Shown: in pieces, positions 9,100 to 62,236 of the stretch
How the letters are laid out: each line of letters starts with the position of its first letter
Numbering within the stretch: the stretch's first letter is position 1
Assembly: GCA_008632985.1 (NCBI GenBank)
Contig: QPGO01000082.1
Location: forward strand, 248,001-312,000
Direction of reading: 5' to 3'
Source: Psammoneis japonica
Taxonomy: Eukaryota
Length of the DNA: 64,000 bases
Made by a program: the position numbers and the translations under genes
The notes under the pieces: generated by a model
The model's input: only the letters and a program-made list of their open reading frames with translations
Told to the model about the DNA's origin: nothing
Database searches by the model: none

Positions 9100-12000
9100 C
9101 CTGCCCTTGTCCTGCCTGCAACAAGAAAACAAATGCAGCACAGGGGGGCCTGGGCAGATTTCTGGTGCAAAATTTAAACAGAAAATCGCGTGGGAAATCT
9201 CACTCGTGGTGTTTTTCCCCGTGCTTTGCGAATCACAGGCAGACCATGACCTCAAGGAATCGATTTCAGTCACAACTGTCAGTTGACACTTTGATGTCCA
9301 TTGCACCAACCTCACAAAGTTCAACGAAAGTGAGGTGACCCAATGGGCTTTTGTTGCTTCCTCTCATTCTTCCAAAGAGGAGCAAAGCAACAACAGCCAA
9401 CTGGACAGCTTCATTGCTGTTGATGCATCAAGGATCATGCCTTTGCTGCTGCACTGGCTGTGCTTGTGTGCTTTGCTTGCAGGAAGATGAGTGACCAAGC
9501 GGTGCCAAATGCGGAGGCAGGGCAGCCTCCACCAAGACAGAACACAAACTGGCAAGGCCAAAATGATGCTGCACCACTGGCAGTGCAGCAACCTCTGTCA
9601 GTGGGCAACATGCCACCACTGCCTCAGGCACCAGTGCCACCCATGGTGCCAAAAGTGGTGCCTGCAGTGGGAGGACAGCAAGGAGCACAACAACCTCTGC
9701 AAGCACACAGCCAGCACCTCAGATTGCACCACCACCACCACTGGTCACACGCAATTGCCAGGATCATCACAAAAATGCTGGAGCGAATGATCCATGGCTT
9801 CCATTGGGCCTGTGCAGATTTCATGGCAGACTTTGCAGCCCCATCACAGGGACAGTTCCAACACAACCCGGCTGCCCTTCATGGGCAAGTCATGGCAACG
9901 TCAAGTCATGACATGCCTGTGGCATGCACAACGCACTGTCACACCCAAGATGATGCCAACGAGGGTGTCACACAAGTCATGCACCACATGTTGCTGCTTG
10001 CCTGCTCATGGCAATGGGGCCACTGGAGCCATGGGATGGCAACACCTGTGCTGTTGTGGGTGACATGGCACAGGGACAGTTTGCCCTCACCCCTGTCAGT
10101 GATGCTGCATTTCAGTTGGCGCCACATGGAACATGGGCACCAATGCATGCTGTGCTCCAGCAGCATGTTGCGGTGACACCCAAGGGACTGCACTCACACT
10201 TGTGGTTGCTGATGCCACAGATTCTGAGAGGAGGTGCACACCCAATGCAGCCATTGCAGCCAAAGGTGGCACGCACAAGAGCAGTCCGATGTCATTTGCT
10301 TTAAATGCTGTGACTTGTTTGCCAGTTTTCTTGTCCAGCAGCCGGAACACCTCCACCACTTGGTTCTTGCAGCATGTTATGTGGCACTTGGTCTTCACAC
10401 CCTTTGGACTCAGGATGTTTGCTGTTGCGGGTTTTGACCCCAGCTTCATGTTGCCCCAACCTGGCACAGTGCAGTCCTTGTCCAGGGTGTTCACTCTTGT
10501 GTTTGTGGATGGGCCAATCTTGATCTTTGCCAGTCACACATTGTGTGCCAATCTCCAGCTTGCTGCCATGCCAAGGGCAGAGCAGTTGTCAAGGACCATC
10601 TCATCAGCCTCAATGCCCATGCTGGTCTGGCTCATGCTTGTCTCTGGTCACTCATTGACCAGTTGTGACCCATGCCAAGCAGCTCCCTTGCTCCAGATTG
10701 AACATGTCAATCTGGTGGCATTGATGCTCACATCACTGTCCACCAAAGAGTGGTCATCATTGCCATCTCTTGTCAGTGCATGACTCTGCCCTCTCAGATC
10801 TGGTTTCCTTCTGGTCTTTTTGAAACAGTCATTGGCAGCTGCCTTGTCCTTGTGTTGGCAATCTGGGGACTTGTGGTCTTCCTTGCTGCAACAGTGACAC
10901 ATTGTCTTGCCTTGTGTGTCACCCTTCTGGGCATGGCTCTGGATCTTGCCCTTGTTCCCATTCTTGTCCTCACCATTCTCATTGTCACAATGGTCAGGAT
11001 TCTTGGCACATTTCTGCTTGTTGCCCCACTCATGATTGAGCAATGCATCCATTGCTCTGTCCAGGTCTTTTGGGCATGCATCATTTCCCAGACTGCACAG
11101 TCTCTCACAAAACTTTGCTTCAATGTCTTGCAGCAATGGCCGTTGCTGTTCTTGATGAACATGAAAGCAGTCCAGGCCTCAAATGCCATCTTCTTCAGCT
11201 CAGCCTGCTTGCCAGTGCCACTTGTCTTGTGCTCCTTGGTGTTCTCAATGAACCCATTTAGCATCTTGCCAGCACCCAGACCATCTCTGGTGGAGTCTTG
11301 TTGGTTCTTGAATCTTTTGACAGGCAATCTGCAATGGACTCATTCTCTTGTTGCCTCACCTGCAGTGTGTTCTTCAGGGAAATGCACAGAACAGATGTTG
11401 ATCATCCACAATCATGGCAAATGCCTTTGATTTGTTCTCTTCAAACCGTCTCAGCTTGGCACAGCAATCTTTGGATTCTGCATGATGCTTGCACTCACAC
11501 TGTTTGTTCTTGTGTTCCGTGTCCTTTGGGTCAGCCTTGCATGTGGAGTCATCTTCATTGGGTGTGATCTCTGGCTGTTTCAATTTTGGCTTTTCTGCCA
11601 TAAAGTCAGGATGCGTCATGTCCTCTGGGGACCTTGCCACACATTTGCCCTGTTTAAACTCCTTCTGTGTGCATCTGCTGATCTTCTCTTTGACATCTTT
11701 GCATGTTGCATTGCACATGTTGCTGTTCAGGGTTGAAGGATGGAAAACTTCATTTCATGCTTGAAGGACTTCTTGTTCTTGGTGTGGCTCTTGTTGCCTT
11801 TTCCACCATGACCCTTGTGTTGATCATGGTCTTTCCCAAACCTCCCATGTTCTTTGTTGCTCATGGTGCAGACATCAATGATCTTCTGATGGACTGATGG
11901 TCAGGTGTGCACTCAACATGAGCAAACAACTCTCAAGAGTGAATGTTGAACCGGCAAGTCAATGTCACCAAAAGAAAATCCCACCAGGCTTCCTGTGCAG

Positions 12001-15000
12001 TGCCAATGGCCAAATCTCATGGCAGATCAGGAGGGAGAAACACCAACAGATCTTTTTTAGGACTCTTGTCTCACATGTTGAATGGCTGGAGTGCCTTCTG
12101 CCAAAAGCAAATTTGCTTCTTCTCTTGCCACAAAACTCAAGATCTTCAAGCTTCAGCAATCTCTCAGCTTTGCTTTTGAAGAGAAGACAATGTGATGAGG
12201 ACAAATTGAGCTTCCAAGCTTGACAAGAAGAGCTGCTGTGACTGTTGCCACTGTTTGGCCACTCTAACAAGTTGTCACATTGACTGAGCTGTTTGTTTGC
12301 CACTGTTTGTTTTGGTTTTTCCTTCATGGGAGTCAACTCTTTTACTCCAAGAAGAGCTGGAGTCATGTTGCACTCACTTGGTGATGGCAGCATGATGCTG
12401 ACAGTTTTGCCATGTTCCACCTTCAAGCCCAGTGTCACCTCCCCTTGAGGGCACTGAATGGCAGCCAATGAAAGTTGAGTTGTTTCTGGCTGTGCAATCT
12501 CAGCACTGACAGATGATGTAGAGGCATGCAATGTCATGGCAACAACAGCTCAGTTGAATGATGAAAAGAAGAGTGCAGCAACAATGAAGTGATCAAAGGT
12601 GCTGGTTTTTTTTCTGTGGTGCCCAGAGGGCAGCTTTGCACTCATTTTGTGCCAAATTCATGAAGAAACCTGCGTGCTTTTGTCATTTTTTGACTTGGTG
12701 CGGCAATTCTTGTGGAGGGGCAGAGCGGCTCCCTGTTTGGGTGCCAGGAGCTGAGCTGGGATGAGGGCATGTGTGGGACCCTTAGAGGCACATGTGAGTG
12801 GCTTTGACAACTGCGGTGCTCATGCTTGCATTTGCAAAACCACATGCTTCAGAGCATGGCTTCTGACACTTGTTCGCCAGAGCCATGCAGCTGTCAACCA
12901 GAGTGCTGCCTTGGCTTCTTTGCCAAGCAGCCCATCACATGAGATCATGAAAGGACTGAAATGATGCCATCACCCAAGGCAAGGCTCAAGATGCCTGCTG
13001 GTGGACTTTGGTGATTTTGCAAGAAAAATCAAGTGGACCCATTGCTTGCAGCTGCTGGATTTCCACCCAAGAATGCAGTGCAGTCTGTGCATCACTCCCA
13101 CCTGCCTCATGTCATTTCAGCAAAAAGTGCAATCAACCTGCTTTGCACAGGAGATTTCTTGAAGCACATGCAAGCACTTTTCAGGTGAGCAAAAGTGGGG
13201 CAAGTGGGCTTTGTTAAGAAAAAATGTTGGAACACCTGTGTCACGGGGACAGGGATTGCAAAGAACCTGGGCCCATTGAGGAAAAGATGCTTTGACTCCT
13301 GATGTGGTTGACTCAAGTGACTGGTCTCTGGCAGGGAATTTCCTCTGTCACCAACCCCTTGCCTCTGCTTTCACCTCCTTTTTTAGAGTGAGTAATTTGG
13401 TTTGTCACTTGACATGTTGTTCAGCATCACTGGTCAGCTGTTGTTGTCAATTTGTGAGTTTGTGGTTTGCACTGACAACCTCCAGGTGACATTGAACCAG
13501 AAAATTGATGTTGCCAAAAGGGGGCCCTGCTGAGCTTCCTGTGGCACTTGCCAGGTTGCCTGAAGTTGTCAGCACAAACTCCAAACTCAAAAATGACAAC
13601 AGCAGCAGTTGCCCAGCACAATGCACTGGGTGACAAATCAAATGAGCCAAGTGAGCCAAATGATTCACTCCAAAGTGTGAGATAAAAATGGTGATGAAAG
13701 GTTGGCAACAGAGAAAAATCTTCAGCAAACAGTGGCTTCACTTGGTTCACCACATTTTAGAGCCAAAGCATCTTTTCCTCAGAGGACCCAGGTTTCTTGT
13801 GGTCCCTGTGATCCAGATGTGCCCATCACACCCCTGCAGCTCACACCAGCATTTCTAAAATTGGGGAAAATGGTGCTGGGGAGAATCCCCTCTGGCGGTG
13901 TCGTGGCAACCAGATCAGCACCAGCAAAACCTGCTGTCATCTTGTCTCAGAGCACTGACACCCTCCAAACTACAGCACTGCAGGTTGGCACGTTGTCCCT
14001 CATCAGAAAAGTCAATTGTGTCATAGAACAAGATGGCTGCTCCTTGCACATTCTCCACAAAGCACCCAGCAAAGGTGCAACAGATCCTTTCAAATGGGGG
14101 TCTGCTCAGCGGAACACTGGGCAGCGTCTTGATCGAACCACTGGTTTTCAAGGGAGTCAAATCAGAGAGCTCTGCATTGTGACAAGTCCATCTCAAAATT
14201 GAGCTTGTTGCATTGATGTCACAGTTGAAGGTGAGGCTGGCTGTGCTGCCCAATTGCACCGTCCATGCTCCAAACAAGCCAATGATGACTCACATTGTTC
14301 TTGGGACCTTTGACATTGATCTTCACAAGGGGCCACAAACCCCACATGCATCCATGCCAAAGGTGGGGCAACTGCCTGACAACCATGTGCTCAATTGGCC
14401 AGCAACACTGCTGTTTGTGATGCTCAAGACACCCACCACAATGACAATGACAGCACAACATGCAGCACCATTGAGGCAACCGCCAACAATGTTGCCAGCA
14501 CAATGCTCAAGACAGCCACTGGCAACAATGCCTGCTCAGTGCTTAAAATGTCCACTGACAACATTGCTGGTGCAACAATGGAGAAACTGACTTGCAATGT
14601 TGCGCCAGTGTTGTGCTCATCCAAACCAACATTTGAGTTTGAGTTGATGCTTGCTGACTCCAAACTTCCTTGCACCAAGTTGGGGCATTGCTGCCAGGCT
14701 TGTCATGCAATGGCAAGCAGCTCAAGCTGGTCCACTGTGCACCCAATGGCACTGCTTTGAGTTGTCTGCCCTGTTGGTGCAGAGGTGAGCCCAACAAGGA
14801 AATGACAAATTGCAAACAACAAAAGCAATTGCAGCGGTGCTGCGGTGTGTTGTTTTTTGAAGTTGTGTCCAAAATCTGGTGTTTTTTGTATGGGTTTTTG
14901 TGCAATGGCTTTGGGGTCACCCAGAAATGGGGTCACTGCTTTGCTTGAGGAAGAGAAAGCAAGACATTTTTGTGTGACATTTTTTGCCCAAACAGCAATG

Positions 15001-16315
15001 CCTGCTTTGGCAAGAAATGTGCTGCATGTGCAAAATGGCACACACAAGACACGTGCAAGAAAAAATTCTGCAACCCCATGTGCAATGATTGCCATCTGTC
15101 ACTTGCTGCATGCCTTCTCTGCTGTTGCAGCTGATGCACTCTCCAGAGATGATCATGTTGTGCAATGCAAAACATGGGCCAATGAAGCGTTCACACAGCT
15201 CCTTGTTTGCACAGCTCCATTTTCACACAGATGTGCCAGTCTCGCAATTTCTGCAAAATGTCTTTCAACAACCTGCTGTGCCAGTTGCTTGACAATGTGC
15301 AAGAGGGTTGCAGTGCTGGTCTTCTGACTTGAGCTCCTCAGCAGCTTCAGAAAAAATTGCTGCACTGCATGATTTGAAGCAAAGTTGGTTTGTGATGACA
15401 CCAAACCATCTCATGGCAACAAGGCAGTTGAAACAGATTGACCCCTTGACATGCTCCAAAGATTCTTGGCTGCATGGCTTTCCCCTTCACTTGTGTGGCT
15501 GGGAGTGTGAAAATGGGCACAATGGCTGAGCTCTTGCAGCAGAACAAGGCATGACCTTCTGGGTCTTGGCATGTCAAAAAACAAGATCTGTTGTTGAAAA
15601 AGCCAAAAACAATGCTCAAACATTTGAGTGCTGCTGAGCCAACAGCAGGTTGGGAAACTGAAGAAACAAGAAGAACTTCAGAAAGATTCTTGTCAAGAAG
15701 CAGACAAAGTGCAAGTGCTTGATGCAGAAGAAGCCAAGGAGCACTCTGTGGCAGATGACAACAAAACAGGAGAAGAAGAGCCTCTTGGTTTTTGAACTTG
15801 GACAGCAGCCAGTCAACATCAAAGGCGCTGTTTGTGGGAACAGGCCATGTGCAATTTTAAAAGCAGGGCAGCACCCAGAAGCAGTCAAGGCTGTTCAGAG
15901 TCTAAAGCCCAGCAAAGCATGCAAGTTGCCACAAGAAAATGTTCTGCAATGTGCAGCACAGTGCAGGTTGTCAACAACTGGTGGTTGTTGTCCAGCCAGA
16001 CTCCCAAAGAAAGGCTCAGAAAACACTTCTTGTGCATTTTTCTTCCCTGCAAGGATTGCACTGCAGACAACATCAATGTGTCCACCAGCTGTGGTGCAGC
16101 TGGCAATCATCAACTTGTGTTTGCAGCTCAAATGAAGGGTTTTTGCAACACAGGGTTTCCTCCAAAAACTGTCACAGCTTTGAAGCATCGCCATCTGCAC
16201 AGAGAGAAGTGATTTGCAACAAACCCAGAAGTTGTGTTGTTGAAGATTTGATGGGCACAAAGCTGTTGCTTTGCTGTTTTTCACACAACCACTGCATTGT
16301 TGTTTGTGTCGGTTG
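9100..16315. mobile_element. Old degenerate transposon block, depleted of TpA and CpG
   Basis: Very few TA or CG, saturated with TG/CA; spurious Cys/His-rich ORFs in all six frames; contains a Copia gag relic. Confidence 0.75.
10100..11870 (-). pseudogene. Copia-type gag / zinc knuckle / protease relic
   Basis: Fragments ATCKDVKEKISRCTQKEFKQG, SLGNDACPKDLDRAMDALLNH, CHCCSKEDHKSPDC (CCHC knuckle), VLDNCS (protease-like) and ANILS, broken by frameshifts. Confidence 0.65.
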
Positions 16316-16694
16316 TGCAACATGCGTTGTTATGTACGTATTATATATGTATATCTATATATTAAAAAAAAGTATATTTCAATCGTACGTCAATCGTGGG
16401 TTCGTACGAAGTACAGATCGGTCACACAGAAGTGATCGGATGTCGAGAATCGCAAATGCGATCGTACGATGATGTTGACATCTTATGTGTCAATGTCAAT
16501 CGTATCCGGACAATCTGTTGTCACGATCATATTCTCCGAAAGGCCTTTTGTCTGTAGGAGCAGTACAAAAGGTTTAGGCCATTGAGAACCCATTCGGAGA
16601 AACCCAAAATGATTGCATGGAAATAATTCTCATAATTTTCACTTTTTATACTTGATTCTACTTTCGTTTATACTCGTTCTTCGAGCATAGTGCA
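16316..16694 (+). repeat. Gypsy 5' LTR
   Basis: Near-identical to 21113-21492; begins tgcaa and ends gtgca. Confidence 0.95.
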
Positions 16695-16730
16695 TTGTGT
16701 ATACACACCACAGAAGGTAATAAGTTCAAG

Positions 16731-17885
16731 ATGAAGCTTTCACCTCATGCAACCAACGCTAAAACTTCGTTAAGGCAGGAGAAAATCGTTCCTCAACCGC
16801 TGGAATCGAACTCCGAGCCGAAGAGCCTCAAACCGAGCCAGTGCCTCAAGATGGAGCAACGTTTTCATCCCGAGAAGAAGGATAGCCGTACCTACACCAT
16901 CAATGTCGAGCACTACAAGAAACAAGGTGTCCCCAAGTTTGTCGAATTTCTCAAGAGCTACGATCAACTTCCAGTGGGCCAGAATGTCAGGAAGCAATCT
17001 GACAAGTTTCGTCTCATGCGCATGTTACTCCAAGGAGACGCTCTACGTGCTTTCGAGAATGCGGCAGCGAACCTTGAAGACGAATCTGCAGAAGGAAGCT
17101 TCGAGAAATGCCTGCAACATCTCACGAGGCATGTGTTTCCCAAGAACGCACTTTCGGTGCAGAAACGTTATTTGCGTCGTGATCTCAAGAAGCCGGAGTC
17201 CATGAAAGTACGCGAAATTGCTGCTTGGGTCCAGGAAGTCAACGAAGACCTCAAGTTCTATCCTCCCTTTGGGAAGGAACAGAAGATCGAGGACGACGAG
17301 CTCAAGGACATCCTCTTCAATCTTGCACCTCAAAAGTGGCAGCGTCAGTCGACCGTCCAGGGTTTCGAAATTTTGAAACACACCTGTGACGAGTTGGTTG
17401 AGTTCTTGGAGCGCCCAGAGGTCGCAGAAGACATGTTCGATGGCATTCATGCCAAGGCTGATGGCAGTGGCGGTGCTGCATCAAAAGCCAAGAGTGGCTC
17501 CCAACGTGGTTCCAAAAATGGTCACCAACATGGTGCCGAAAAATCTCAGTCCGAGAAGTGGTGCATTTCATGTGAGAAATCCACTCACAACACGGACAAG
17601 TGCTGGTCGATCAAAAGACTTGCGAAAGAACGCCATGGGAACTGTGAACCCGACCCGAAACGGCGCCGTTCAAATGGCAATCGCACGTGGTCTCGTCGCG
17701 ACAACGACAACGCCGCTCGCAAAGAAGAGTTGAATGCTGTGGCGATCCAAGCAGTTCAAAAAATGCTCAAAGCGAGTTCCTCGAACAATGATGAAAAGCA
17801 CAAGAGCAAAGATTGTGATTCTGATGCCCTTGACGAGGAGAATGATCAGTTTGAAAAAATGATGCGCAGCGATTCTGAGGAATGA
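16731..17885 (+). CDS. gag: Gypsy gag
   Basis: LLQGDAL...VFPKNALSVQKRYLRR capsid-like region; CISCEKSTHNTDKC knuckle. Confidence 0.85.
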   Translation: MKLSPHATNAKTSLRQEKIVPQPLESNSEPKSLKPSQCLKMEQRFHPEKKDSRTYTINVEHYKKQGVPKFVEFLKSYDQLPVGQNVRKQSDKFRLMRMLLQGDALRAFENAAANLEDESAEGSFEKCLQHLTRHVFPKNALSVQKRYLRRDLKKPESMKVREIAAWVQEVNEDLKFYPPFGKEQKIEDDELKDILFNLAPQKWQRQSTVQGFEILKHTCDELVEFLERPEVAEDMFDGIHAKADGSGGAASKAKSGSQRGSKNGHQHGAEKSQSEKWCISCEKSTHNTDKCWSIKRLAKERHGNCEPDPKRRRSNGNRTWSRRDNDNAARKEELNAVAIQAVQKMLKASSSNNDEKHKSKDCDSDALDEENDQFEKMMRSDSEE

Positions 17886-21086: not shown

Positions 21087-21112
21087 CTCTAATGTGCAAT
21101 TAGGGAGGCGAA

Positions 21113-51981: not shown

Positions 51982-53701
51982 TTATGGGCACTTTCTATTT
52001 ACAATGGCGGTGCCCCATTCGTCATATTCTGAACGTGTGATCCACATATCATGAAACGTCCCCATGCTTCCCAAGATGCTCCCTCCAAGCCAACTGCAAA
52101 TAGCCCGTTCCTGCATGCTGGGGGACAACACCTTGACTCTCCACCCAGGAGTATGGGTGTGAATAATACCCTCGACCTGTTCTCGCAACAAGTCTGGTAC
52201 GGCCTGATCTGTTGGACCCAAGCAAGCGCCACCGCCACACAGCACAACATTACCGAGCAGTGACGCCTGCTGGTCACGATCGCATCGAAAAGCCGCGTCG
52301 CAAACCATACTCGGTACCGCGGCCGACGTGATTTGTTCCAACTGATTCTGCAAATAAGGCACACAGGCACGTTGTAAATGCCGGTTTGAAAAAGGCGGTC
52401 TGCTCTTGCTTTCTTTACTGGCCTTTTCGGCAGCCTTTGTTGTTCTTTTCTTTTTGCTTCGTCGCGAAGACAATCCCACGGCTGTGCTTTCATTGTACTT
52501 TTCCTTGTACTTTTCGTTTTCTTCCGTATTGGTCTCGTCCTCCACATGAGACGCGTCAGCAACAAGGGCCGTGAACTTCTTCTGTATGTCAGCCACAGCA
52601 TCTTCTCTTTGCTGCGCGACCATGTCGTCTGTACCAAACAGCAGTTCCGGAACTGCAAAACGCTTTGCAGCAGGGACATCGACCTGCTGACCATCCGGAA
52701 GGTAAAATTCCATATGAGGAGCCTTGAATTGAGGGTTTGAAGCATTGGCATTGTCAGTCTTTGAAGCAACCGACGCACCAGCACCGGCTTCTTTTGCTTG
52801 ACGAGCCACGTCGAGACGAGCTAACCGATGAAAGGGCTCGGCGCGCTGGATATGATTCTTGCGTCGAATCTGATAAAGAGGCATGAATGGTTTGCCCGCA
52901 AGAGTATCCAAGGTCTTGAGCACTTCTTCATCCATAGCCAAGCCTCCCATGGGACTCCGACGGATACCCTTTTGCTCGACGTAGCCCTCATAGACCGGGG
53001 TGACGACAGTCCCTCCGTATCCAATATCGACAACCGTTCCGGTGGTGCGTCCCGTAGCATAGCATGCCATGGTAGCATCACGTCCTAGAAAAGCAGCGGG
53101 AACATTAAGCTCTTCCATGAGACACTCCAATACTTGTTGTCGAATGGGCGGGGGGTTGTACGAACGCTCCACCAAGAGCAAGGGAAATTGATCAGTCGTT
53201 GTTCCGAGTGCCGATTCGTATCCATGCCGAATCAAGTGCTGCAACAAATCATCCCAATCGGCGCCATTACTTTCGGTTGACATGTTGCTATTACCACTAT
53301 TATTCTCCTCGTCCCCTCCGTCATACCACAAACCCGTCGTTGGGTCTACCGGATTGCTCACATGCCACTTTCCGTCGCTGTCGTCTTTGAGGCTGATGGG
53401 ACGGGTGAAATAATCATAGTGAACCTTATCAATACGACGCCGACTTTTCGATCCGTCTGATTCCGATACGGATTTATTCTGTGTTCCTTCTTCTCTCAGG
53501 ATTGCTACATTCTGTTACGAAAAAAGAAGTGTGAGTGATAGGTGCGTGAGGAATAGACCGCACAAGCAAAAAAATCCAGCTTCATCATACCGATCGAAAA
53601 TAAGACTTTGGATAATCTTCTCCGGCAAAGCCCAATTTGCTACTATACGATCCAATATCAGCTACAATAGCATTGGCGCTATCACCACCCGTATAAGCCA
53701 T
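51982..53701 (-). CDS. ARP4: Nuclear actin-related protein 4; intron 53512-53590
   Basis: Exon 1 MAYTGGDSANAIVADIGSYSSKLGFAGEDYPK; GRTTGTVVDIG; SWLGGSILGSMGTFHDMWITRSEYDEWG...RKCP C-terminus; the splice is in frame. Confidence 0.92.
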
Positions 53702-54468
53702 TGCAGAGAGAGGGAGGAAAGGCGGCAACAACAGCGTTGCTACGGTGTATGGTGTCGTCGCTCGTCGTTCGTCGTTGTTGTGCGAGTTCACAGTGCATCG
53801 TTTGCGCGAAGATGCAAGAAACGCGCGAAAAAGCTTCACGTCATGATGACAGTCTGTCCACCCATCCGCATTCGAATGTCAACTTCTCGCTCGGGAAATC
53901 AATTGAAATGCTGTCAATTGTGATCAAAGGTGTTGCTCTTCACCATGCAAATCAAAATGCCTTTGATCAGATGACATTTCAATTGAATTCCCGAACAAAA
54001 AGTTGGCAGCTCCAATCACCCTCTCTCGTGACATTGTGTGCTCACCTCTGCACGATTTTCATTTTCCCTCATGCAAAATGTCAGTTGTGACTCTTGTGAC
54101 ATTTTCAAATGATTCCCATTGACAACATTGCACTCATTATGATCGACTCCAGCTGGAGTCTACAACATGAAAGTCTGCCAAGCCGGACATCGATGTTGTC
54201 GTGCTTCTTGCTCACAAAAAATGCGCCGCCAATCTGCTGACGTCATCGTGCACATGAGCTCAACAGGACAGAGGATCTTTGCATGATCCTGAAAAAATCA
54301 TCCCTTCATGCTTCACTGCACCATGCTGAAAACCCCGTGATGATCATCCACAATGACTGAAAGTCCAACTTTTTGTCAAAATCTCTTGTCGCACACTCAT
54401 CCAGTGCCTCGCTGATGTGATCAAATGAGAAAACTCCAAATGCCAAAAATCAACAGTCCCACTGTGGA

Positions 54469-54745
54469 TGACAGAAAATGAAGGCAAATGGCAAGAATTC
54501 AAACAACAACTCCTTGCTGCTGTCTAAATGGCAGATGAGTCTCCACTCAGAGACCGTTGCAGGAGCCGAAAGACGCGCAAGTCGGCACAATCGGGCTGCT
54601 GTCATTGTTCTTGTGAGCCTTGTGGCTCGAAAGCAAACTGCATCGCGCGCGAACGCGTGGAACTAAAAGCACACAAAACTGTGCGCGGCAAACTAAACAG
54701 CGCGCGACATTTCGCGCGCACCTGAATCCTGTTCAAATCCTGTCA
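54469..54745 (-). repeat. Copia 3' LTR
   Basis: Colinear with 61303-61579 without indels. Confidence 0.95.
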
Positions 54746-57700
54746 CTCCCCAGTTTGCTTGAGGAGCCACAGAAACAGATTCGACTTCGGATGAAATGAA
54801 GTTCCAGAACATGAGGGGGCGGAGAAGGTCCCAGATTTGGGAGCAACCCCAATGCTTGCTGAGGATGTCAGCAGGGTTGCGGGAGCCTTCGATGAAGTGG
54901 AGCCCAAGGCAACCAGAGGCAATTGCCTCACGCACACGGTGGAACGACAGTGCGGTGTGTCGCTTGTGTAACTTGGAGTGCGGGATGGTGGCACTGTCTA
55001 CAACCGACTTGTTGTCACCGAACATGTAACTGACATTGCGGATCGGGACGCCAAGGCAGTGCAGGGTGATGCGCAAGTCAACAATCTGCTCGACACAAGT
55101 CCTTGCGGCAACAAATTCAGACCCGCAGGTCGCAGTCTCCACGGTGGCTTGCTTCTTAGAGAACCAATCAGCCGGGAACTTGTTGAGGAAGTGGAGCATT
55201 CCCATGACAGAGCGTCCGGTGAGCATGCAATGGCACAAGTTTGCATCGACGCAGTGGGTGGTGGTGACGAACTTGCCAAGGGGCGGTGGAGCGTCCTTCG
55301 GGATCATCTCTTCTGCTTCGCCGCACACGGAATGCATCCATTCACAGGCCGGAGCAGGGAGATCCGAATGGTCGGGCTCTCCCGTGCGAACGCGGAGAGC
55401 ACCGTGTCGCATCTTGGAGAGGCACCCACAGACGCGTTTGGCACGATCCAAGTGGCCTTGACAGGGTGCAGCTCGGAAGCTAGAGAGTGACATGACAGCC
55501 GTGGCAATGTCAATTCGACCAAGGGACACTGCCCATTGGAGTGAGCCAACAAGAGACTGGAACTTGTGAATGCCATCGGGTCCCAGCAGTTCGGAAGTGT
55601 CCAGTTCGGGGTGGTCACCCTTCTCCAGAGGTGACAGGACGTTGGTGGCAGGTTTCTCCCCAAACAGTCGGGCGCAGCTGTCGACCATGCGCTTGATGTA
55701 CTTGCGCGGAGACAGGCACAAGGTTCCGTCGGGATCCCGGGAAAAGTCGCAACCCAGATGGAACTCAATGGGTCCCGCACCCTTGAGCTTGAACTTGTGC
55801 TTCTCCGTGAGAGTGTTGACGAAAGATTGAGGGTCCTTCATGGCAATGGCGAGGTCATCCACATAAACAGCAATGCACTCACAGTGGTCGCCGTTCCTGC
55901 ACATCCAAATGTCGGGTTCGGCGCGGCAGGGGAAGAAGCCTTCAGCTCGCAGGCAGTCGGCGAAGCGCTCGTGCCAGCGGAGACCGGAGCTGCGCAGTCC
56001 ACACAGGGCCTTGTGGATGACAAGGATGTGTCCTTCGAGTTTGCCAAATTCGGGTCCGGCTGCAATGTAAAGCTTCTCCTTGGTGGTGGCTTCAAGGCAG
56101 GCATTGCCAATGTCGGTGGCCCATGTCTCCAACTCGTTAAGTTCGGCCAGGAAAATCATCAGCCGAAGGCCACGGAGGGAGACTGCTCCGGAGCAGACAC
56201 TGTCGACAGGTGCATCTGTGAGGTGCCCGTCGGCTACGAGTCGTGCCTTGTGGCGACCGTCGTGTTTCACGTCGTACACCAGGTGCACTCGGATCTTCTT
56301 GTGTCCCGCAGGAGGAGTGGAAGACTCGAAGGGCCTGCAGTCATGGAAGACTTCACATTCGTCGAGTTGGTCCATCTCGAGATTAGTTGCGTCTCCCCAT
56401 TTGCGGTTGCCGTTGCGTTCGTCCAGTGACATGGCATGTTTGCAGTTCCGGGGAACTTCGCATCCACACTTGTGGCGAGGTGCAGTGTGGAAGGAGCGAA
56501 GCTTGGCTTGGCTGGCCATGCGAAACAGCTTCTTTTGGCACCTCGCGATGGTGCGGAACCGCTTCCAGCCATCCGTGTCAAGGAGTCCGTTCTCTCGTGC
56601 ATAGATGGCGCAGGTGACGGGGTTGTCCTTGGCGATGATGGCAAGAGGCTCGGACGTGATCTCCCCACTTTCCCATTCAAGCATGATGTTGTAGCTTGAG
56701 CCTTTCCAGGTTGGGTCGTGAGGCTTCAGAGGTCCTTCGTGTGACACGATGCGTCGAAATTTCCAAATGGCAGTGTCTTCGTCTCCTTGCTCAATGTGAT
56801 TCATGATGTCATTGCAGGCAAGGACTTCCTCGCATTCGTCGTTGTTGACAGAGCAGACGAACTCAGTGAGCTCGGGATTGCCGCTCACTTTCCATTCGTG
56901 GTCTTCGACGGCCTTGACGATGTGAGCTCTGTGGCGTTGTCCGTCCTCTTGTGGCTGCATGAGGAAGGTGCGTCCAATGATGTCTTGCGGATCAAAAACT
57001 GGCATCTTGGGTGTCCTGATCTCCCCATCAGGAGAATCGACGGGGTTGTCATCATGGCGAGATTTGATGATGGGTTCAGGTGGCTCCCCATCAGGAGGAT
57101 CAAGACGCAGGTTTCGAACGGCAGGATCGGTGGCAGCGGAGCGGACGTTGGACCGGCAGAGGATCTTCTGAGTCTCGTCAGAGAGAATCTTGAAGGTCAT
57201 CTGGTGGCCGACGTGCTCAGCAATGCCAACGAAGCGTCCACGCAACTCACGGGATTTGGACGGCCAATCGGAGTCATCGAGGTGGAAGTGCACGGGTTCC
57301 CACCAGTGAAAGCGAAGCAATGGGCTGATGTCCGGGGTGGAGCCAGTGAGAGTCTCGAGGGGCGTGCGCCAGTGGAGACATGGGGATGCTGCATGGTTGA
57401 GTGTGAAGCACACACACATGAGCGCCAGCAGCCATGTGTGGGCGGGCGAACCAAAACGATCCATGACAGTGTTCGCCATGCGCTTCACGGTCTGGTGTCG
57501 ACGCTCGGCAAAGTTTTGGTGTTGCTGGTGAGGTTCACTTTGCCAGCTGGAGATGAAGAGGGCCCGTGGGATCCCGAGCACTTTGTTGCTGATCTCAACT
57601 TGAGCACGGTCGCTGATGAGTTTGGATGGGGCACCACGCTCACGGATCTGATCCTCGAGTGTGTTGACAAACTCTTTGTCCATCTTGGTGCCGTAGACGT

Positions 57701-60363
57701 CAGTGACGGTAGACTCGGTGCCAACAAACAGTTGGGCACTGGTGCAACCAGAGTTGACGGCCGGGGTGTCGGCATGAACGGTGTCAGTGGCGACAGGCTC
57801 GTTGCGGCGGTGCACATTGAGGGCGGGGTTGGGTGATTTGCAGGCCTTCCTGAGGTGTGCACCGGCAGGCATGCGGGCGCACTGCGTGGTGCAGTCAAAA
57901 GTACGACGGACCGTGTCGGCAGGCAGGAAGCCAAAGCAAGGCCAAAGAGACTCGAAGGGCGGGTCCTTGGGCTGTGCAGTGCGCTCCGGGGGCGGGACGT
58001 CGTCGTCCTTGGGGTCAATCGCGTGTAGATGACACTCGCAGAACACGTCGTCGTTCGGAATGAGGTGATCATCGAGGGCGGACGCGTGATCGGCAGACAA
58101 GGAAGCGGACATGATGGTCTCGTTGACAACGACACGATGACGGCAGTTGCCGCATTCGTCAAACAGGTTGGCAGTGGGATCGTCCTGCAGGTCAGAGATC
58201 GCGTCGCACCACTGGTCGTCATCAGTGACAGAGTGATCGAGGACGGAAGGATCCCATGTGTCATCACCGGTGAGGATGACATGGGGCAGGGTGTCCCATT
58301 CGGCATCAGTGCAAGGTCGCATGGCAACATGAGGCAGGCCGGCCTTGATGTCAATGGGGATGACACAGCCATCAGGAGTGGCAATGCGTTGCAAGCCATT
58401 GGGCACCTTGACAGAGTGATCGTTGACATCCTGTTTGTGCCATTCGAGCTGGCCGCAGGAATGGATGGTCTTGCCCTTGCCCGTGTGTGCGTGCTGATGG
58501 AGGATGGCGATGACGGGACCACGCTGGGTCTCAATGACGGCACCAGCGGTGACAACAGGGATGTCCACCAATTGATGGTCGTCAATGCCCTGAACGTCGA
58601 CTTGGCGAGAGGTGCGTGCAATGACGCGAACGTCGTCGCCAGCAATGCCGCCGTTGGCCCCACGATCGACTAGAGTGCCAGTGCGTGTGGAGCGATGAGC
58701 AGAGGCAGAGCAAATGACATTGTGGTTGTCAATGCGGCGGCAAGTGCGGCCGTTAAGTTCCATGTCATCGGCAGAAGCTGGCGGGGTAGAGGGAGTGGCG
58801 GATGGCCCCGGTCGACTGGCATTGGGGGCTTGGTTAGGAGACAACAGACGGTGCAGATCACTGGGTGGCAGTGGCTTGCGCTTGGTGAGGTGCGCCAGGA
58901 TGGGATTGTCCGAAGTGGCACCCACATTTGGAGCAGAGTCACCAGAGTCAGCAGGAGTCGTGTTGGACAAGTTGACATCACCGTCACTCCCAAGGCGTTG
59001 GTCATGAAGGTTGGCCGTAACGGACTCATGGCAGTTGCTGGCTCGCGGGTTACGGGGAGGCGGACGAGAATGCTCAAGGATGATCGCCTTGGAGGAATGG
59101 GGCAACGAATCCCAAATCTGTTGGTGGTCGGGAGGGAGACGTTTCCATTGGTCACCGGCAAGGCTGGGACCACGGGTGCAGGCAGCATCAGCCTGAAGGA
59201 CGTCAATGTCACTGTCAATGTCGTAGAACACATCGTCGGACGGTTCGTCGGAGTGGACATCGTGTGCGCACATGGCACGTCGGGGAGCTCGAGGTGTCGT
59301 CTTGGGTTGAAAAGTGCTGTCGCATTGAGCTGCCGCAGAGAGGAGCAAGCCACAGCATTGATCGCATGTGAGGCTCTTGCCACTCTGCGTGCGATGCTGG
59401 TCAGCTTGGTTCTTGACAGCACGGAGTTCCTCGACAGGGTGCACGGCATTCTCGAGCATGACGCGCTTCTGTCCTTCAGAGAAGTGGTCACTGGCCGGGA
59501 TGAGTGCCTCGCACTTGCGCAACTGATCTTGCCAATGAAGGATGAACCCGTGGGTCGGACCTTTCCAAGCACCATCACCAAGACGTGCGGTGGTGAGGCA
59601 CGTGAGCAAGGTGGAGGACTCGACAGATGCGCGGGTGGAGGCAAGCGCATGCTCAGACAAGGCACGGCAGACGGTCTGGGCGTCAGAAGACCCCACATTT
59701 TCGCGGATGAGAGCCTTGCCCTTGTCGGTGAGAAGGGTGCGTTTGAAGACAGCGAACATGCACTTTTGCTGTTCAGCAAAGAGCAGTTTGTCTTCGAGGC
59801 TGGTCGGTTTGTACGATGAGTCTAGAATGCACTCGACGTCTTGGGCACGGGCTTGTGCCACAAGTGAGGTGTGCCAAGTGTGCCACTGCTTGTCGGATTT
59901 GAGAGCCGTGAAAGCGGTGGGATCACGCTTGATGCCTCGCTTGAAGTCTCGCACTGGGTCGCGTGCCTTGGTCGGGTTGGTGACATGCGGAGGTGCGAGG
60001 GGTGAGCTGCCGATGGACACAGAAGACATGTGGTCGGGGCTGAGGCGGCAGGCAAGGAACTCGTCATGCGTGAACAACGAGGAGTCATTGGCAACGTCAA
60101 GACCTTTGTGTGCTTTGACAATGTGCAGACCAACTAGAGCTGCTAACATGTTCTTACAACCACGGGGCAATGGGATCACACCAGTGCCGTTGTCGCACTC
60201 AAGCGAGTCGATTTGGGACGGCATGAACGTGAACAGTTCCTGATGCGAGTCCGTGCCGTCTTGGGCCAAAGCCAAACGAAGAGGGCTCCCAGCACCTTGG
60301 GCAAGCACGGTTCCAACAACGTGCTCGAAACCATCGGTTTGTTGCTGACGAGTGAGAACCATG
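54693..60363 (-). pseudogene. Copia gag-pol polyprotein, open but hypermutated
   Basis: FKRGIKRD, LVDRGANGG, VATDT..SDRAQ..SEPHQQHQNFAER, DGRHKARLVADG, DIGNACL, YVDD, WFSKKQATVETAT, NPADILSK; only about 10 Tyr in ~1890 aa. Confidence 0.93.
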
Positions 60364-61302
60364 GTAGACGAAAGTGGTGTCAGGACAATCAATTCTTGTT
60401 GGGAAGCGAAGGTAGACTTGAAACTTGGGTGAGAATGGACTTGACTTGAAATGGACTTGACTTGAAATCTTGAGCCATCTTAAAATCAGAAGTCGCCGGG
60501 CTTTGCTGTCCCGTTCGTTGTCAAGTGCTAAACTTCCTGTCCGGTCCGTAGAGTTGTGCCGGCACGTCCGAACCCGCAGCTGGTGGCGCTTTGGGTTGCT
60601 TGCGAGCGGAGCAGCGGGTTGCAAACCCCTGCAGGCAAGCTGACCAGAGGTGGACAAGACCCCCGAACCATTCTTATTTTACATCGGTTGGATTTCCCGA
60701 TCAGGCTGGCCAGTTGACGCAGGCGTCAGGCGCTGTGGACGAACGAACAAACGCGGGAAAGCACCCTCGCCCCAATGCAGGCTGCAATCACGGCTGCTTG
60801 CTCTCACAGTCGTCCTCGTGGACCTGGCAGAACTGCAGAGCACCAGCAGTCCGGGGCAGATCAGGTGCAATGGACTCGGTGTGCTTGTGGAGTGGCAGCA
60901 AAACCACAGTCCGAAGAGTGGGCACAGGTTCTTGGCTGTGAAGATGTGCACATGTGCAAATGTCTTCAGCGGCGAAGATCCTTGAACATGCAGGGTTCTT
61001 GACCGTCAACCGATGAACAGGCACACCAAGGGATGAGGATCAAGGACAGACTTGGATGTGACCGTTGAATGCATGTCTTCAGCGATCAAAGGCAGCATGA
61101 TCAATCCAGACATCCAGCGGCAAGGAGACTTGACGGTGACGTTAACTTCCTGCCGATGCCCTGGTGTTGAATGCGCGCAGACTTGCCGATGTGTGTAGAA
61201 CACATGCTGAGGTCCACGCAGAAATTGAAGTGGTGTCATTGGCAAATCAACAACGATGATGGCGGTTGCTCAATGGGTTGACAATGAGCAAGACTGTTGA
61301 TC

Positions 61303-61579
61303 TGACAGAAAATGAAGGCAAATGGCAAGAATTCAAACAATGACTCCTCACTGCTGTCTAAATGGCAGATGAGTCTCCGCTCAGAGACCGTCACAGGAGC
61401 CGAAAGACGTGCAAGTCGGCACAATCGGGCTGCTGTTGTCATTCTTGTGAGCCTTGTGGCTCGAAAGCAAACTGCATCGCGCACGAACACGCGGAACTAA
61501 AAGCACACAAAACTGTGCGCGGCAAACTGAACAGCACGCGACATTTCGCGCGCACCTGGGTCCTGTTCAAATCCTGTCA
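61303..61579 (-). repeat. Copia 5' LTR
   Basis: Matches 54469-54745; all differences are transitions. Confidence 0.95.
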
Positions 61580-61924
61580 GTGGTGGAAAACTCCACGCAA
61601 TTTCAGCACCAAGTTGTGCATGTCAAAGGTCAGTCATCACCAATCGCTGAACCAGCTCCCAAAATGACTCGGTCGCTGTCATCTGACATTTTTGCTGCGC
61701 TTGTTGTCACATCAGCTGTGGTCTTTGTGAGCCAGAACCCCCCCAGTTAGCTGTTGTTGTCATGTGCGGCCATCAATGTCACGGCGTCGTTGCTGTGATG
61801 TTTGTGTTGTGTGTGTCGGAGTGAATTCAAATCGATCACTGCGAATTTCGCAGCACATTCTACATGCGCAAACTTTGTGTGGGTCAGTGCGGGAACCGGA
61901 TTTTTGAAAGAGTGCGTTGCGCTC

Positions 61925-62090
61925 TCGCGGAGCGAGGTCATGGGTGGCAGTGCGGAGCCATGGGTGGTCGCGCGTAGGCCATGTTGGTGGTCGCGCGGAG
62001 CCATGTGGGTGGTCGCGCGGAGCAATCGAAATCAAGGGTGGTCGGGCGGTGGTCGTCGCTGGTCGCGGTCGCCGCAGAGGCCATGGGTGA
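61925..62090 (+). repeat. Short GC-rich imperfect repeats (ccatg..ggtggtcgcgcggag)
   Basis: About 5 imperfect copies of ~20-23 bp. Confidence 0.6.
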
Positions 62091-62236
62091 CTGCGCCCGC
62101 AAAAGGGTGCAAGTGCAAACTCGAAACTCGGCCTCATGGCTCATGGTGACTGCTGAGTGGCATTCACATTGCGGATTGATCATTTCGCTCTTCTTCTTCT
62201 CCTTGCAACAAATAGAAGTAGGTACTACAGGAACCG

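Follow-up and report, generated by a model that had tools for sequence, protein, structure and literature searches.

What removes almost every TA dinucleotide from discrete blocks of a diatom contig while the neighbouring genes keep theirs? We addressed this question in 64,000 nt of Psammoneis japonica (GCA_008632985.1, contig QPGO01000082.1, positions 248,001-312,000 of the forward strand), hereafter the window, for which the original prediction had proposed that repeats are hypermutated from TA to TG or CA. We read the TA-poor blocks as transposon islands, holding a Copia element, a nested Gypsy element, a MITE-like element and older unclassifiable relics, that were hypermutated in place (Table 1). 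We give a probability of about 0.7 to a TpA-specific transition process acting in place and limited to the islands, a figure that does not include its chemistry.

Table 1. Features of the window; TA-poor stretches and islands are given at their refined limits (a and b, composition classes)
Feature	Position	Strand	Remarks
Island called old relic, left part (a)	9176-16315		TA and CpG nearly gone, TG/CA doubled
Nested Ty3/Gypsy LTR retrotransposon	16316-21492	+	RVT_1, integrase; LTRs 16316-16694 and 21113-21492
TA-poor stretch in the Gypsy interior	17250-20500
Island called old relic, right part (a)	21493-26752		last 329 bp (26424-26752) are unit 1 of the tandem array
329-bp tandem array, units 2-4	26753-27623		outside the island; TA kept; internal reference for polarity
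Island called old relic (a)	34456-39021		both TA and CpG lost
Island called old relic (a)	41751-45467		moderately repeated in run X1
Younger island (b)	49489-51527		TA lost, CpG kept; contains the MITE-like element
MITE-like element, 395 bp	50127-50521		28-nt terminal inverted repeats; 5 TA, partly depleted
Younger island (b)	53749-62212		Copia element, with 0.6-0.7 kb of older repeat flanking each side
Ty1/Copia LTR retrotransposon	54471-61579	-	RVT_2; LTRs about 54471-54745 and 61305-61579

Composition and limits of the islands

To describe the islands, which total about 33.5 kb, we grouped the TA-poor stretches into class a (4 stretches, 20,044 bp) and class b (3 stretches, 13,503 bp) and compared their composition with that of six gene-bearing stretches (27,345 bp). 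In class a, 70 TA were observed against 1323 expected (observed/expected ratio, o/e, 0.05) and 144 CpG against 1175 (0.12), with TG at 1.86 and CA at 1.88. Class b holds 86 TA against 744 expected (0.12), with CpG at 0.84, TG at 1.48 and CA at 1.44. The corresponding ratios in the gene stretches are 0.60 for TA, 0.98 for CpG, 1.14 for TG and 1.15 for CA. These counts show that the predicted loss of TA and flood of TG and CA are real and strong, and that unique genes are indeed spared. AA is untouched (1.22 in both classes, 1.15 in genes), TC is not depleted (0.91 and 1.21 in the islands, 1.17 in genes), and the remaining dinucleotides are close to their values in the gene stretches. Arithmetic on the counts gives an almost exact balance between the TG+CA surplus and the TA+CpG deficit: class a has lost about 724 TA and 1007 CpG (1731) and gained about 1807 TG and CA, and for class b the loss is about 489 and the gain about 534. 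There are two tempos, young elements being without TA but with CpG, and old relics without both. CpG decay had been considered beforehand only as a contrast, and the additional loss of CpG from four stretches had been missed.

The islands have sharp borders, with transitions within less than 100 bp, and the confinement to mobile-element islands holds as proposed. Up to 49488 the spacing of TA is 4-8 bases, after which no TA occurs before 49691, and TA is dense until 53748 and dense again from 62213. Inside 49489-51527 only 5 TA remain in the 1637 bp outside the MITE-like element. The first block is not uniform, as had been supposed, since depletion of the nested Gypsy element is limited to about 17250-20500. 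Conserved retroelement motifs, on which the prediction had leaned, are present in the Copia and Gypsy elements but recognisable in no other stretch. No ORF of 9176-16315 passed the Pfam cut-off, and tblastn with Copia or Gypsy proteins matched nothing in this stretch, which has no recognisable coding remnant; across class a and the rest of class b (without the Copia and Gypsy elements), none of the 117 ORFs of at least 90 aa reached the cut-off. The class a stretches, in which no domain is found, are called transposon relics here on the basis of their repetition in run X1 and their like composition.

For other copies we relied on summarised contigs from a single sample of one study (X1-X3), possibly the same data that underlie the window's assembly. 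In X1, contigs of 41751-45467, whose initial 250 bp are poor in TA with CpG still abundant, lie at half the gene depth, and the summed depth is 200-850 against about 60 over genes. These data also bear on the possibility of a sequencing or assembly artefact, in which a modified base of heterochromatin is miscalled and TA is present in the cell. The window does look like a long-read product, having one N and, over a gene, 10 gaps relative to an X1 contig of 3.2 kb, and modified motifs give systematic long-read errors. We nevertheless hold an artefact to be very unlikely, because an 818-letter X1 contig (possibly from the window's own assembly data) repeats the TA-free stretch 42042-42859 with 0 differences at a depth of 31. 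Further X1 contigs span the borders at 49489 and 53749, and about 240 letters of other X1 copies at joints are free of TA where about 9 are expected (p=8e-5). Moreover, TG and CA outcomes are mixed by context with a clean mass balance, three unrelated public Gypsy proteins likewise show Tyr replaced by Cys or His, and a miscall of 90-95% at one dinucleotide would be far above known basecalling errors.

Direction and timing of the change

The direction of the change can be read from the proteins. The Copia element has a single open frame (54693-60479, 1928 aa) with 0.5% Tyr against a median of 3.8%. Defining a conserved Tyr column as one with Tyr in at least 80% of 45 Copia homologues, we found 34 of 40 such columns changed (Cys 26, His 6, Phe 2, with Tyr in the other 6), against 63 of 721 other conserved columns (Fisher p=2.5e-27). 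The Gypsy protein has no Tyr in 472 aa, and the 9 conserved Tyr columns of its reverse transcriptase are now all Cys (6) or His (3); the same domain carries Leu to Pro (4) and Leu to Ser (2) replacements, matching the expectation from CTA/TTA to CCA/TCA. The polarity is TA to TG or CA, that is, a transition from A:T to G:C at one or the other base pair of the TpA step; the predicted direction stands on Cys or His at 32 of the 40 Copia columns and 9 of 9 in Gypsy. A related Copia of another organism (L001) has normal TA (o/e 0.58) with decayed CpG (0.27), and a second related element, also from another source (L002), has TA at 0.6-0.9 and 18 Tyr in 394 aa. From these two sequences, the TA depletion appears to be particular to the present lineage.

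It could be argued that no mutation took place and that the elements were built without TA, through original composition or through selection to escape a nuclease that cuts at TA or UA. RNA viruses commonly avoid UpA, and the 1928-aa Copia frame appears intact at first sight; it remains open, however, only because TA to TG or CA is unable to make stop codons, and the replaced Tyr include positions of the catalytic region, where selection for function would forbid such changes. Given too the normal TA of relatives elsewhere and the recent change from TA seen in LTR doublets and in a tandem-array unit (below), we find this explanation scarcely credible. No active TA-free master copy with intact catalytic residues was seen within the window.

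Three comparisons date the change. Reduced to a purine/pyrimidine alphabet, the Copia LTRs are 100% alike over 277 bp; they differ by 19 transitions and 1 transversion, which by type are 5 TG|CA doublets (TG in one copy, CA in the other), 6 CpG differences to TpG/CpA, 1 TA|TG, 2 other transitions and the transversion; we estimate that two independent CpG hits would yield about 0.15 such doublets. The Gypsy LTRs (99.7% alike in the same alphabet) differ by 10 transitions and 0 transversions, with 8 at TA-type sites (7 TA|TG/CA and 1 TG|CA doublet) and 1 at CpG, bringing the two pairs together to 29 transitions and 1 transversion. Gypsy has a 4-bp target duplication, GTTG, Copia has a probable 5-bp one with 4 of 5 positions alike, and an X1 contig joins 54443 to 61601, the flanks without the Copia element. 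In the tandem array, units 2 and 3 differ by 4 substitutions in 328 aligned positions, while unit 1, inside the island, has 1 TA against 11 in unit 2; 10 of the 11 ancestral TA have changed, 5 to TG and 5 to CA. The MITE-like element, delimited by X1 joints at 50130 and 50519, belongs to a very high-copy family (roughly 2000 copies; X1 summed depth 123,866 in its bin). At 50322 and 50330 the window reads CA where TA is found in 80% and 83% of the family's X1 depth, and by this depth most copies retain TA at sites lost by the island copy. Because the LTRs differ, array unit 1 has lost its TA and the MITE copy departs from its family, the change came after insertion, in chromosomal DNA, as predicted.

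These same observations weigh against editing before integration, in which ADAR- or ADAT-like A-to-I editing of transcripts, or a cDNA deaminase, delivers copies that arrive TA-poor, so that the sharp borders are insertion borders. Borders are indeed sharp at element ends, and former Tyr codons have become Cys more often than His (Copia 26:6, Gypsy 6:3), which amounts to a sense-strand excess of A to G that would also be expected from RNA-level editing. Context explains this bias only in part, the ratio still being 13:3 at sites whose opposite strand offers a context at least as good (p=0.02). The Gypsy interior, Tyr-free and poor in TA, also looks as if derived from an edited or mutated template, since the LTRs and the 0.6-0.9 kb at the ends keep TA (o/e 0.78) although they lie inside a fully depleted island. 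These ends contradict the simple rule that the whole interior of an island is mutated; the Gypsy interior may have been inherited already mutated, and part of the depletion would then move along with retrotransposition. Deaminase-type transition hypermutation of retroelements by APOBEC3 and ADAR, fixed in genomic copies, is known from animals (PMC4866542 and PMC5224506, in the parts available). Those enzymes edit cDNA or RNA and leave LTRs identical at integration, yet here the LTRs differ by 5 TG|CA doublets in Copia and at 8 TA-type sites in Gypsy; a copy of the MITE, an element of DNA-transposon type without an RNA stage, carries mutations that set it apart from its family, and one array unit is mutated and its neighbours are not. 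APOBEC, besides, produces G to A, and ADAR tolerates either A or U on the 5′ side of its target, whereas AA is not depleted here and a T is needed 5′ of the A. Editing before integration is hence improbable.

Spectrum, tempo and candidate chemistries

The preferred context is T-A-N, with the +1 base in the order T>C>G>>A. The surviving sites are TTAA and CTAA/TTAG, never ATAT, and TA survival fits the product of two strand-wise terms set by the base 3′ of A. In the process that we propose, nearly every TpA of the islands was converted to TpG or CpA. It is fast, since a Copia copy whose LTRs carry almost no other change is near saturation; from the LTR counts we estimate that, per site, it outpaces the CpG to TpG/CpA decay of this DNA some 20-fold and other substitutions several hundredfold. 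Old relics have lost TA plus CpG, leaving the appearance that only TG and CA remain.

The TpA context, the sparing of AA and the near absence of transversions argue against ADAR and polymerase eta alike. Polymerase eta-like synthesis had been among the predicted effectors, and would act here through repeated error-prone repair patches in silenced, methylated DNA, inserting G opposite T at WA. In somatic hypermutation the polymerase eta phase makes A to G changes at TA, the hottest WA motif, with a bias to A on the non-transcribed strand, and the CpG decay seen in these islands points to frequent repair of T:G. The fit is nonetheless poor: AA, the other WA motif, is untouched, polymerase eta makes many transversions at A:T whereas the LTR pairs hold a single one, and polymerase error would hardly bring one dinucleotide so close to saturation. 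We give this route little credence.

The spectrum fits adenine deamination in DNA; it also fits a modified thymine that is read as C, and the data do not separate A to G on one strand from T to C on the other. Supposing the process is real, we tentatively favour a deaminase that would be recruited to silenced mobile-element chromatin and convert adenine to hypoxanthine at 5′-TA in DNA, perhaps while this DNA is transiently single-stranded. We know of no natural DNA adenine deaminase. The closest resemblance, one of outcome only, is to TadA/ADAT2 and to TadA-derived base editors, which act on an A preceded by U or T: A is converted to I and read as G, the edited A of tRNA at position 34 follows U at position 33, and TadA evolved in the laboratory works on DNA in single-stranded form. 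To our knowledge, no natural member of the family edits chromosomal DNA, and the 64-kb window holds no such gene, nor any other visible effector gene, as had been noted.

If thymine is altered instead, a TET/JBP-type dioxygenase would mark T at TpA in mobile-element DNA, in place and within the islands, and 5hmU oxidised on to 5-formyluracil would sometimes be copied or repaired as C, giving TA to CA and, through the other strand, TG. 5-formyluracil mispairs with G; 5hmU itself pairs with A, and we know of no strong mutagenicity. A precedent exists in another SAR lineage, the dinoflagellates, in which repeats and transposable elements carry 5hmU made by a TET/JBP homologue and, in earlier work, thymine was replaced preferentially in TA and TC dinucleotides (PMC11572971, in the part available). 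In that part the mark is a silencing one and is not reported as mutagenic, while TC is unaffected in our islands. Transitions at 85-95% of sites would also demand highly efficient miscoding. We consider the thymine route unlikely, although A to G and T to C on opposite strands cannot be told apart here.

Known hypermutation systems and targeting

The pattern resembles RIP of Neurospora and other ascomycetes in being a transition-only hypermutation of repeated or mobile chromosomal DNA with a dinucleotide preference, with sharp limits, spared genes, dead elements and a distorted dinucleotide content. RIP converts C:G to T:A mainly at CpA, creating TpA and destroying CpA/TpG, in a premeiotic phase that requires duplicated DNA and RID/DIM-2. 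Here, on the contrary, TpA is destroyed and CpA/TpG are made, the opposite polarity on a different base, and a high-copy MITE is unmutated in most of its copies. RIP is defined as repeat-induced point mutation (PMC3318451, in the part available). CpG decay by 5mC deamination, which includes the CpG-targeted RIP-like mutation of basidiomycetes, is present as a slower second process, as shown by the 6 CpG differences of the Copia LTRs and the low CpG of old relics. According to the part of PMC9998398 available, transposons of diatoms are methylated at CpG, and DNMT4 genes related to RID occur in many diatoms. CpG decay, however, cannot remove TpA, as illustrated by L001, where CpG has decayed with TA retained. 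The earlier judgement that neither RIP nor CpG decay alone explains the blocks is upheld, our literature search found no description of a TA to TG/CA pattern in mobile DNA, and the evidence points to an undescribed A:T-to-G:C mutator directed at mobile DNA.

We infer that this mutator may act as a defence. Elements would then be killed by replacements such as Tyr to Cys or His and not by truncation, because TA to TG or CA never yields a stop codon. As to targeting, the proposal that repeats as such are recognised gained no support: most MITE copies keep TA, and two local tandem arrays that lie beyond the island borders are unaffected. Chromosomal location or chromatin explains the targeting at least as well as homology.

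Composition and contents of the islands

Dinucleotide composition was followed in 1-kb and 250-bp profiles and in counts pooled per class of stretch. The loss of TA with gain of TG and CA that the original prediction had read from the sequence is confirmed both by the TA and CpG profiles across the window and by the pooled counts. The islands, in which nearly all TA has become TG or CA, fall into two classes, one poor in TA and CpG (class a) and one in which TA is lost and CpG kept (class b). The remaining dinucleotides depart little from gene values: the observed/expected ratio of AA is 1.22 in islands and 1.15 in genes, AG is not increased and TC is unaffected. Measured against the gene ratios, class a is short of about 724 TA and 1007 CpG (1731) and carries about 1807 extra TG plus CA, and class b has a deficit of about 489 and about 534 extra. 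The surplus of TG and CA is thus the quantity expected from the TA and CpG deficits together.

Features of the window, with observed/expected dinucleotide ratios for the three classes of stretch
Feature	Positions	Strand	Description
Class a islands	9176-16315, 21493-26752, 34456-39021, 41751-45467		four stretches, 20,044 bp; TA 70 observed, 1323 expected (0.05); CpG 0.12, TG 1.86, CA 1.88
Class b islands	17250-20500, 49489-51527, 53749-62212		three stretches, 13,503 bp; TA 86 observed, 744 expected (0.12); CpG 0.84, TG 1.48, CA 1.44
Gene-bearing parts			six stretches, 27,345 bp; TA 0.60, CpG 0.98, TG 1.14, CA 1.15
Ty3/Gypsy element	16316-21492		RVT_1 and integrase; LTRs 97% alike; 4-bp target duplication GTTG
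Ty1/Copia element	in 53749-62212; LTRs about 54471-54745 and 61305-61579	minus	RVT_2
MITE-like element	50127-50521		395 bp; 28-nt terminal and 19-nt subterminal inverted repeats
Tandem array	26424-27623		329 bp x 3.7; crosses an island border
Tandem array	27696-28339		212 bp x 3.0; in ORF 27695-28423, sub-threshold YesK match only
Actin-family protein gene	51982-53514	minus	Pfam scan of ORFs
Ornithine cyclodeaminase/mu-crystallin homologue gene	62222-63340		Pfam scan of ORFs
Other genes			armadillo-repeat proteins, plastid-type DUF3593 protein, TDP1, MIF4G protein; Pfam scan

Island sequence is complex rather than low-complexity, and its borders are sharp. TA occurs every 4-8 bases up to 49488 and next only at 49691; the island at 53749-62212 is framed by dense TA, which ends at 53748 and resumes at 62213. 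At several edges (41751-42000, 26501-26750 and 34456-34750) TA is gone with CpG at or near gene level, the first of them holding 24 CpG and 2 TA, and one such edge sits directly upstream of the MIF4G gene. Here the loss of TA either extends slightly beyond that of CpG or simply goes faster at the margins.

An error of sequencing or assembly was weighed against X1, one of three runs (X1-X3) of a single sample; the runs are of unrecorded library type and may be the window's own source. X1, whose word depth over genes is about 60, reproduces 42042-42859, part of a TA-free island, letter for letter in a contig of 818 letters; other contigs run from genes into the islands at 49489 and 53749. The window and X1 differ by 5 letters and 10 gaps over a gene contig of 3.2 kb, which makes them separate consensus sequences; over the 20 kb compared, their differences comprise 586 transitions and 132 transversions. 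Furthermore, twelve short stretches of other copies at X1 joints (about 240 letters) are free of TA; gene density would predict about 9 (p=8e-5). We therefore consider it very improbable that an artefact lies behind the loss of TA.

Both retroelements are recognizable by domain. The Copia element is probably flanked by a 5-bp target duplication, with 4 of 5 bases alike, and an X1 contig links 54443 to 61601, that is, its flanks without the element. The Gypsy element is nested inside the long class a island at 9176-26752. Joints of X1 contigs fall precisely at 50130 and 50519, next to the ends of the MITE-like element. The bin with this element reaches a summed X1 depth of 123,866, compared with about 60 for genes, and the element is probably among the most abundant of the genome. 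X1 contigs connect its ends to positions within Copia copies elsewhere.

Among class a and other unclassified stretches, none of 117 ORFs of at least 90 aa scored above the Pfam cut-off, and tblastn with five Copia homologues and the window's three Gypsy ORFs gave no match beyond the two elements. Self-comparison in a purine/pyrimidine alphabet, which is blind to transitions, found local internal repeats only and no hidden homology between islands. The class a stretch 42001-45335 reaches a summed X1 depth of 200-850 and is hence moderately repeated. We infer that class a stretches are old transposon relics. Individual X1 contigs over 42001-45335 have a word depth of 31-35, half the 57-60 of neighbouring genes, which suggests that two haplotypes differ in this island, through either a hemizygous insertion or strong divergence.

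Direction, timing and tempo of the change

The polarity of the change was read from conserved protein columns. For Copia we aligned 45 homologues longer than 1800 aa and 59-70% identical, taken from the 120 matches listed. Median Tyr and Cys among these 120 are 3.8% and 0.95%, and the window protein has 0.5% Tyr, 3.5% Cys and 4.9% His. At the 40 columns that are Tyr in at least 80% of homologues it carries Cys 26 times, His 6, Phe 2 and Tyr 6 (85% changed), against 63 changes at 721 other conserved columns (8.7%; Fisher p=2.5e-27). The Gypsy reverse transcriptase frame (17886-19304), aligned to 26 homologues of wide coverage out of 150 matches listed, contains no Tyr in 472 aa (1.7-5.0% in homologues). 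All nine columns that are Tyr in at least 60% of homologues are replaced, six by Cys and three by His, and among 24 conserved Leu columns there are four Leu>Pro and two Leu>Ser, matching CTA/TTA>CCA/TCA. Changes of TAY to TGY and of TAY to CAY at conserved Tyr fix the direction as TA>TG and TA>CA, and the predicted polarity is thereby borne out. Such changes cannot make stop codons, and TAA and TAG vanish, so that the 1928-aa frame of the Copia element stands open, as do many ORFs in other frames; an open frame in an island is no indication of function.

When an element integrates, its two LTRs are identical. Of 285 aligned positions in the Copia pair 20 are substituted, by 19 transitions and 1 transversion; these comprise five TG-versus-CA doublets, in which one ancestral site turned TG in one LTR and CA in the other, six CpG|TpG/CpA differences, one TA|TG, two other transitions and the transversion. 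With about 13% of some 20 CpG per LTR changed, two independent CpG hits would yield about 0.15 doublets; five are far above this expectation, so the ancestral site was TA and the Copia LTRs held TA at insertion. The ten substitutions of the Gypsy pair are all transitions (seven TA|TG/CA, one doublet and one CpG), which brings the pooled pairs to 29 transitions and 1 transversion. In purine/pyrimidine letters the Copia LTRs are 100% identical (277 bp) and the Gypsy LTRs 99.7%, against 92.3% and 97.1% in four letters.

The 329-bp array provides a second line of evidence. Its unit 1, inside the island, has 1 TA against 11 in unit 2, and compared with positions on which units 2 and 3 agree it shows five A>G changes after T, five T>C changes before A and six CpG transitions; only 4 substitutions separate units 2 and 3. 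Across the two tandem arrays of the window, units outside the island are 94-99% alike and retain TA. The third line is the MITE, as DNA-transposon derivatives of this type go through no RNA step. In the window copy, positions 50322 and 50330 read CA, whereas TA accounts for 80% and 83% of the X1 depth there; three more sites read TG or CA, with TA in 17-60% of X1 depth; five TA are left in its 395 bp, against five in the other 1637 bp of its island. Fourth, comparison of the internal repeats within the old islands gives 67-82% identity in four letters and 86-94% in purine/pyrimidine letters. These four lines point to a loss of TA in the chromosome, after insertion, and support the mutation of chromosomal DNA that had been proposed.

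Editing by an ADAR-type enzyme before integration would also turn A into G. ADAR accepts a 5′ U or A, hence edits AA as well as UA; in the islands AA is undepleted and AG not raised. Furthermore, pre-integration editing cannot account for LTR pairs that differ at TA-type sites, nor for the affected MITE and array, and these observations argue against it.

Rates were estimated from the same LTRs. In the Copia pair at least 11 TA events are visible and 5 TA survive across both LTRs; of about 46 ancestral CpG, 6 were hit, and about 500 other positions hold 3 further substitutions. For Gypsy the corresponding counts are 9 TA events against 63 surviving TA, 1 CpG event among about 46, and no other substitution. 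By this estimate TA is lost about 20 times faster than CpG of the methylated type and hundreds of times faster than other sites. As TA loss outpaces CpG loss, young elements are TA-free yet CpG-rich (class b) and old relics lack both (class a). Internal repeats of class a additionally carry 4-9% transversions.

The Gypsy LTRs and the adjoining 0.6-0.9 kb at each end keep TA (0.78, with CpG at 1.29) inside a fully depleted island, and the interior at about 17250-20500 is depleted (TA about 0.12-0.17, CpG 0.67-0.98). On one reading the interior was inherited already mutated, through template switching or conversion from a mutated copy, and the young insertion would itself have lost only about 12% of its LTR TA so far. 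On the other, targeting tracks homology or small RNAs that span only the interior.

Sequence context and candidate mechanisms

Surviving TA amount to 3.5 per kb in class a, 6.4 in class b and 39.4 in genes. They are mostly TTAA and CTAA/TTAG, with no ATAT and almost no ATAC/GTAT. When class b survivors are set against gene counts scaled to class b length, survival is estimated at about 70% for TTAA, 39% for CTAA/TTAG, 22% for CTAG, 9% for GTAC, 5% for ATAA, 3% for ATAC and 0% for ATAT. These values fit a product of two independent strand-wise terms, each set by the base 3′ of the A in the order T>C>G>>A. At Tyr codons the Cys:His ratio is 26:6 in Copia and 6:3 in Gypsy. Since TAY on the sense strand always has a favoured 3′ pyrimidine, part of this excess is explained; the ratio is still 13:3 where the preceding base makes the opposite-strand context equal or better (p=0.02), so that a bias towards the sense strand is suggested, not established.

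The change thus concerns one dinucleotide with a strict 5′ T, consists of transitions on either strand, nears saturation, is limited to islands and follows insertion. These features favour an enzymatic, sequence-specific conversion over polymerase error. Polymerase eta, a candidate of the original prediction, targets both TA and AA at WA motifs and mixes transitions with transversions at A:T; here AA is not depleted, only 1 of 30 LTR substitutions is a transversion, and this candidate fits poorly.

We favour a process in which adenine would be deaminated to hypoxanthine in DNA at 5′-TA. Hypoxanthine pairs with C. Adenine deamination and CpG decay would then be two hydrolytic deaminations that converge on TG and CA. 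The outcome, as distinct from the enzyme, resembles that of TadA/ADAT-like deaminases, with only TA lost and a T-A-N context in which the +1 base ranks T>C>G>>A. No CDA-fold deaminase gene was found among the window ORFs scanned against Pfam, consistent with the earlier view that the window holds no effector gene. That the diatom lineage has a natural enzyme deaminating chromosomal adenine at 5′-TA, aimed at the silenced chromatin of mobile elements, is a tentative proposal to which we give a probability of roughly 0.28. If true, this would be a mutational genome defence that reverses the polarity of RIP, and its enzyme would be the first DNA adenine deaminase from nature; elements would be inactivated by Tyr>Cys/His and similar changes, and stop codons never created.

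The main alternative is that thymine at TpA would be modified and then copied as C. Dinoflagellates offer a precedent: PMC11572971 describes 5-hydroxymethyluracil (5hmU) associated with transposons there and mentions an older report of a TA/TC preference. Hydroxylation of thymine by TET/JBP enzymes would overlap with the islands at TA, but TC is spared in them.

Two further candidates were rejected. An unrepaired deoxyinosine or modified base read as G on every platform predicts all-TG and all-CA strand versions, against the context-dependent mix of the window, and replication would fix the change anyway. GC-biased gene conversion does not single out a dinucleotide, and the DNA concerned also loses CpG.

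RIP of ascomycetes is triggered by duplication and makes C:G>T:A transitions, mostly at CpA, raising TpA and lowering CpA and TpG. It stays within the duplicated segment, works through RID/DIM-2 effectors of the cytosine methyltransferase type, and acts before meiosis. Both RIP and the island process are transition hypermutations of mobile DNA in the chromosome, and the LTR pairs are nearly free of transversions as RIP would have it. The defining polarity, however, is reversed, with TpA down to 0.05-0.12 and CpA/TpG up to 1.44-1.88, which places the island process outside the RIP family. As to a duplication trigger, the two tandem arrays are unmutated outside the islands and most depth of the MITE (395 bp, about 2000 copies) retains TA where the island copy lost it, though either may fall under a length threshold. 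According to PMC9998398, many diatoms have DNMT4/RID-related genes of unknown function, and diatoms CpG-methylate transposons. Decay of methylated CpG agrees with the CpG ratios of both classes (0.12 in a, 0.84 in b) and with the six Copia LTR differences, and explains the CpG half of the pattern only.

Relatives, significance and the gene-bearing parts

Three public Gypsy reverse transcriptase proteins, P0255, P0297 and P0322, are likewise free of Tyr. They are mutually 31-54% alike, and Cys or His occupies 7 of 9, 6 of 7 and 3 of 3 of their conserved Tyr columns, so that the signature exists in other families or other organisms. A Copia relative of 1323 bp (L001; 63% identity), the sole locus of the metagenome scan, has TA at 0.58 and CpG at 0.27, which makes CpG decay without TA loss the ordinary state of transposons. 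The sole genome-contig match to P0255 (L002; 5716 bp, 47% identity) has TA at 0.6-0.9 and 18 Tyr in 394 aa. Filed under a cyanobacterial MAG, it has an intact-looking Gypsy pol and a composition of eukaryotic type; the bacterial MAG has probably picked up eukaryotic (algal) DNA through binning. The viral contigs scanned for related elements gave no locus.

To our knowledge, every known hypermutation directed at transposons works by loss of cytosine, be it RIP, decay of methylated CpG or APOBEC editing. By contrast, the mobile DNA studied here loses A:T pairs at one dinucleotide, fast, almost fully and in the chromosome. Full-text searches turned up no account of transposons that lose TpA in any eukaryote, diatoms included; subscription journals and preprint supplements lay outside this search, and a mention in a genome paper is possible. 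There is a fair chance that a categorically new enzyme lies behind the process. Should the process be enzymatic, it would rest on a thymine modification that miscodes or on a DNA adenine deaminase occurring in nature; in both cases the biochemistry would be new, as would this arm of genome defence in one of the major groups of marine algae. In base-editor engineering, a DNA adenine deaminase had to be artificially evolved. Islands raise GC rather than lowering it, retain long false ORFs and conceal transposon proteins from homology searches, leaving old relics without any domain match; they would mislead repeat annotation, gene prediction and LTR-divergence ages in these genomes.

Depth in X2, another run of the sample, is very uneven over genes and looks like RNA, although no record says so. 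It shows one spliced join over genes, and next to no depth over islands, an absence that contigs cannot establish. Its contig over the actin-family gene (51754-53717) omits 53512-53590, a 79-base intron. Named homologues of the cyclodeaminase are all from diatoms (44-50% identity), and its best match overall, an unnamed one, reaches 62%, which places the window in a diatom lineage outside the protein collection searched. The single N of the window, at 3374, lies in an AT-richer intergenic stretch flanked by a 120-bp direct repeat (3106-3226 and 3626-3750, 82% alike).
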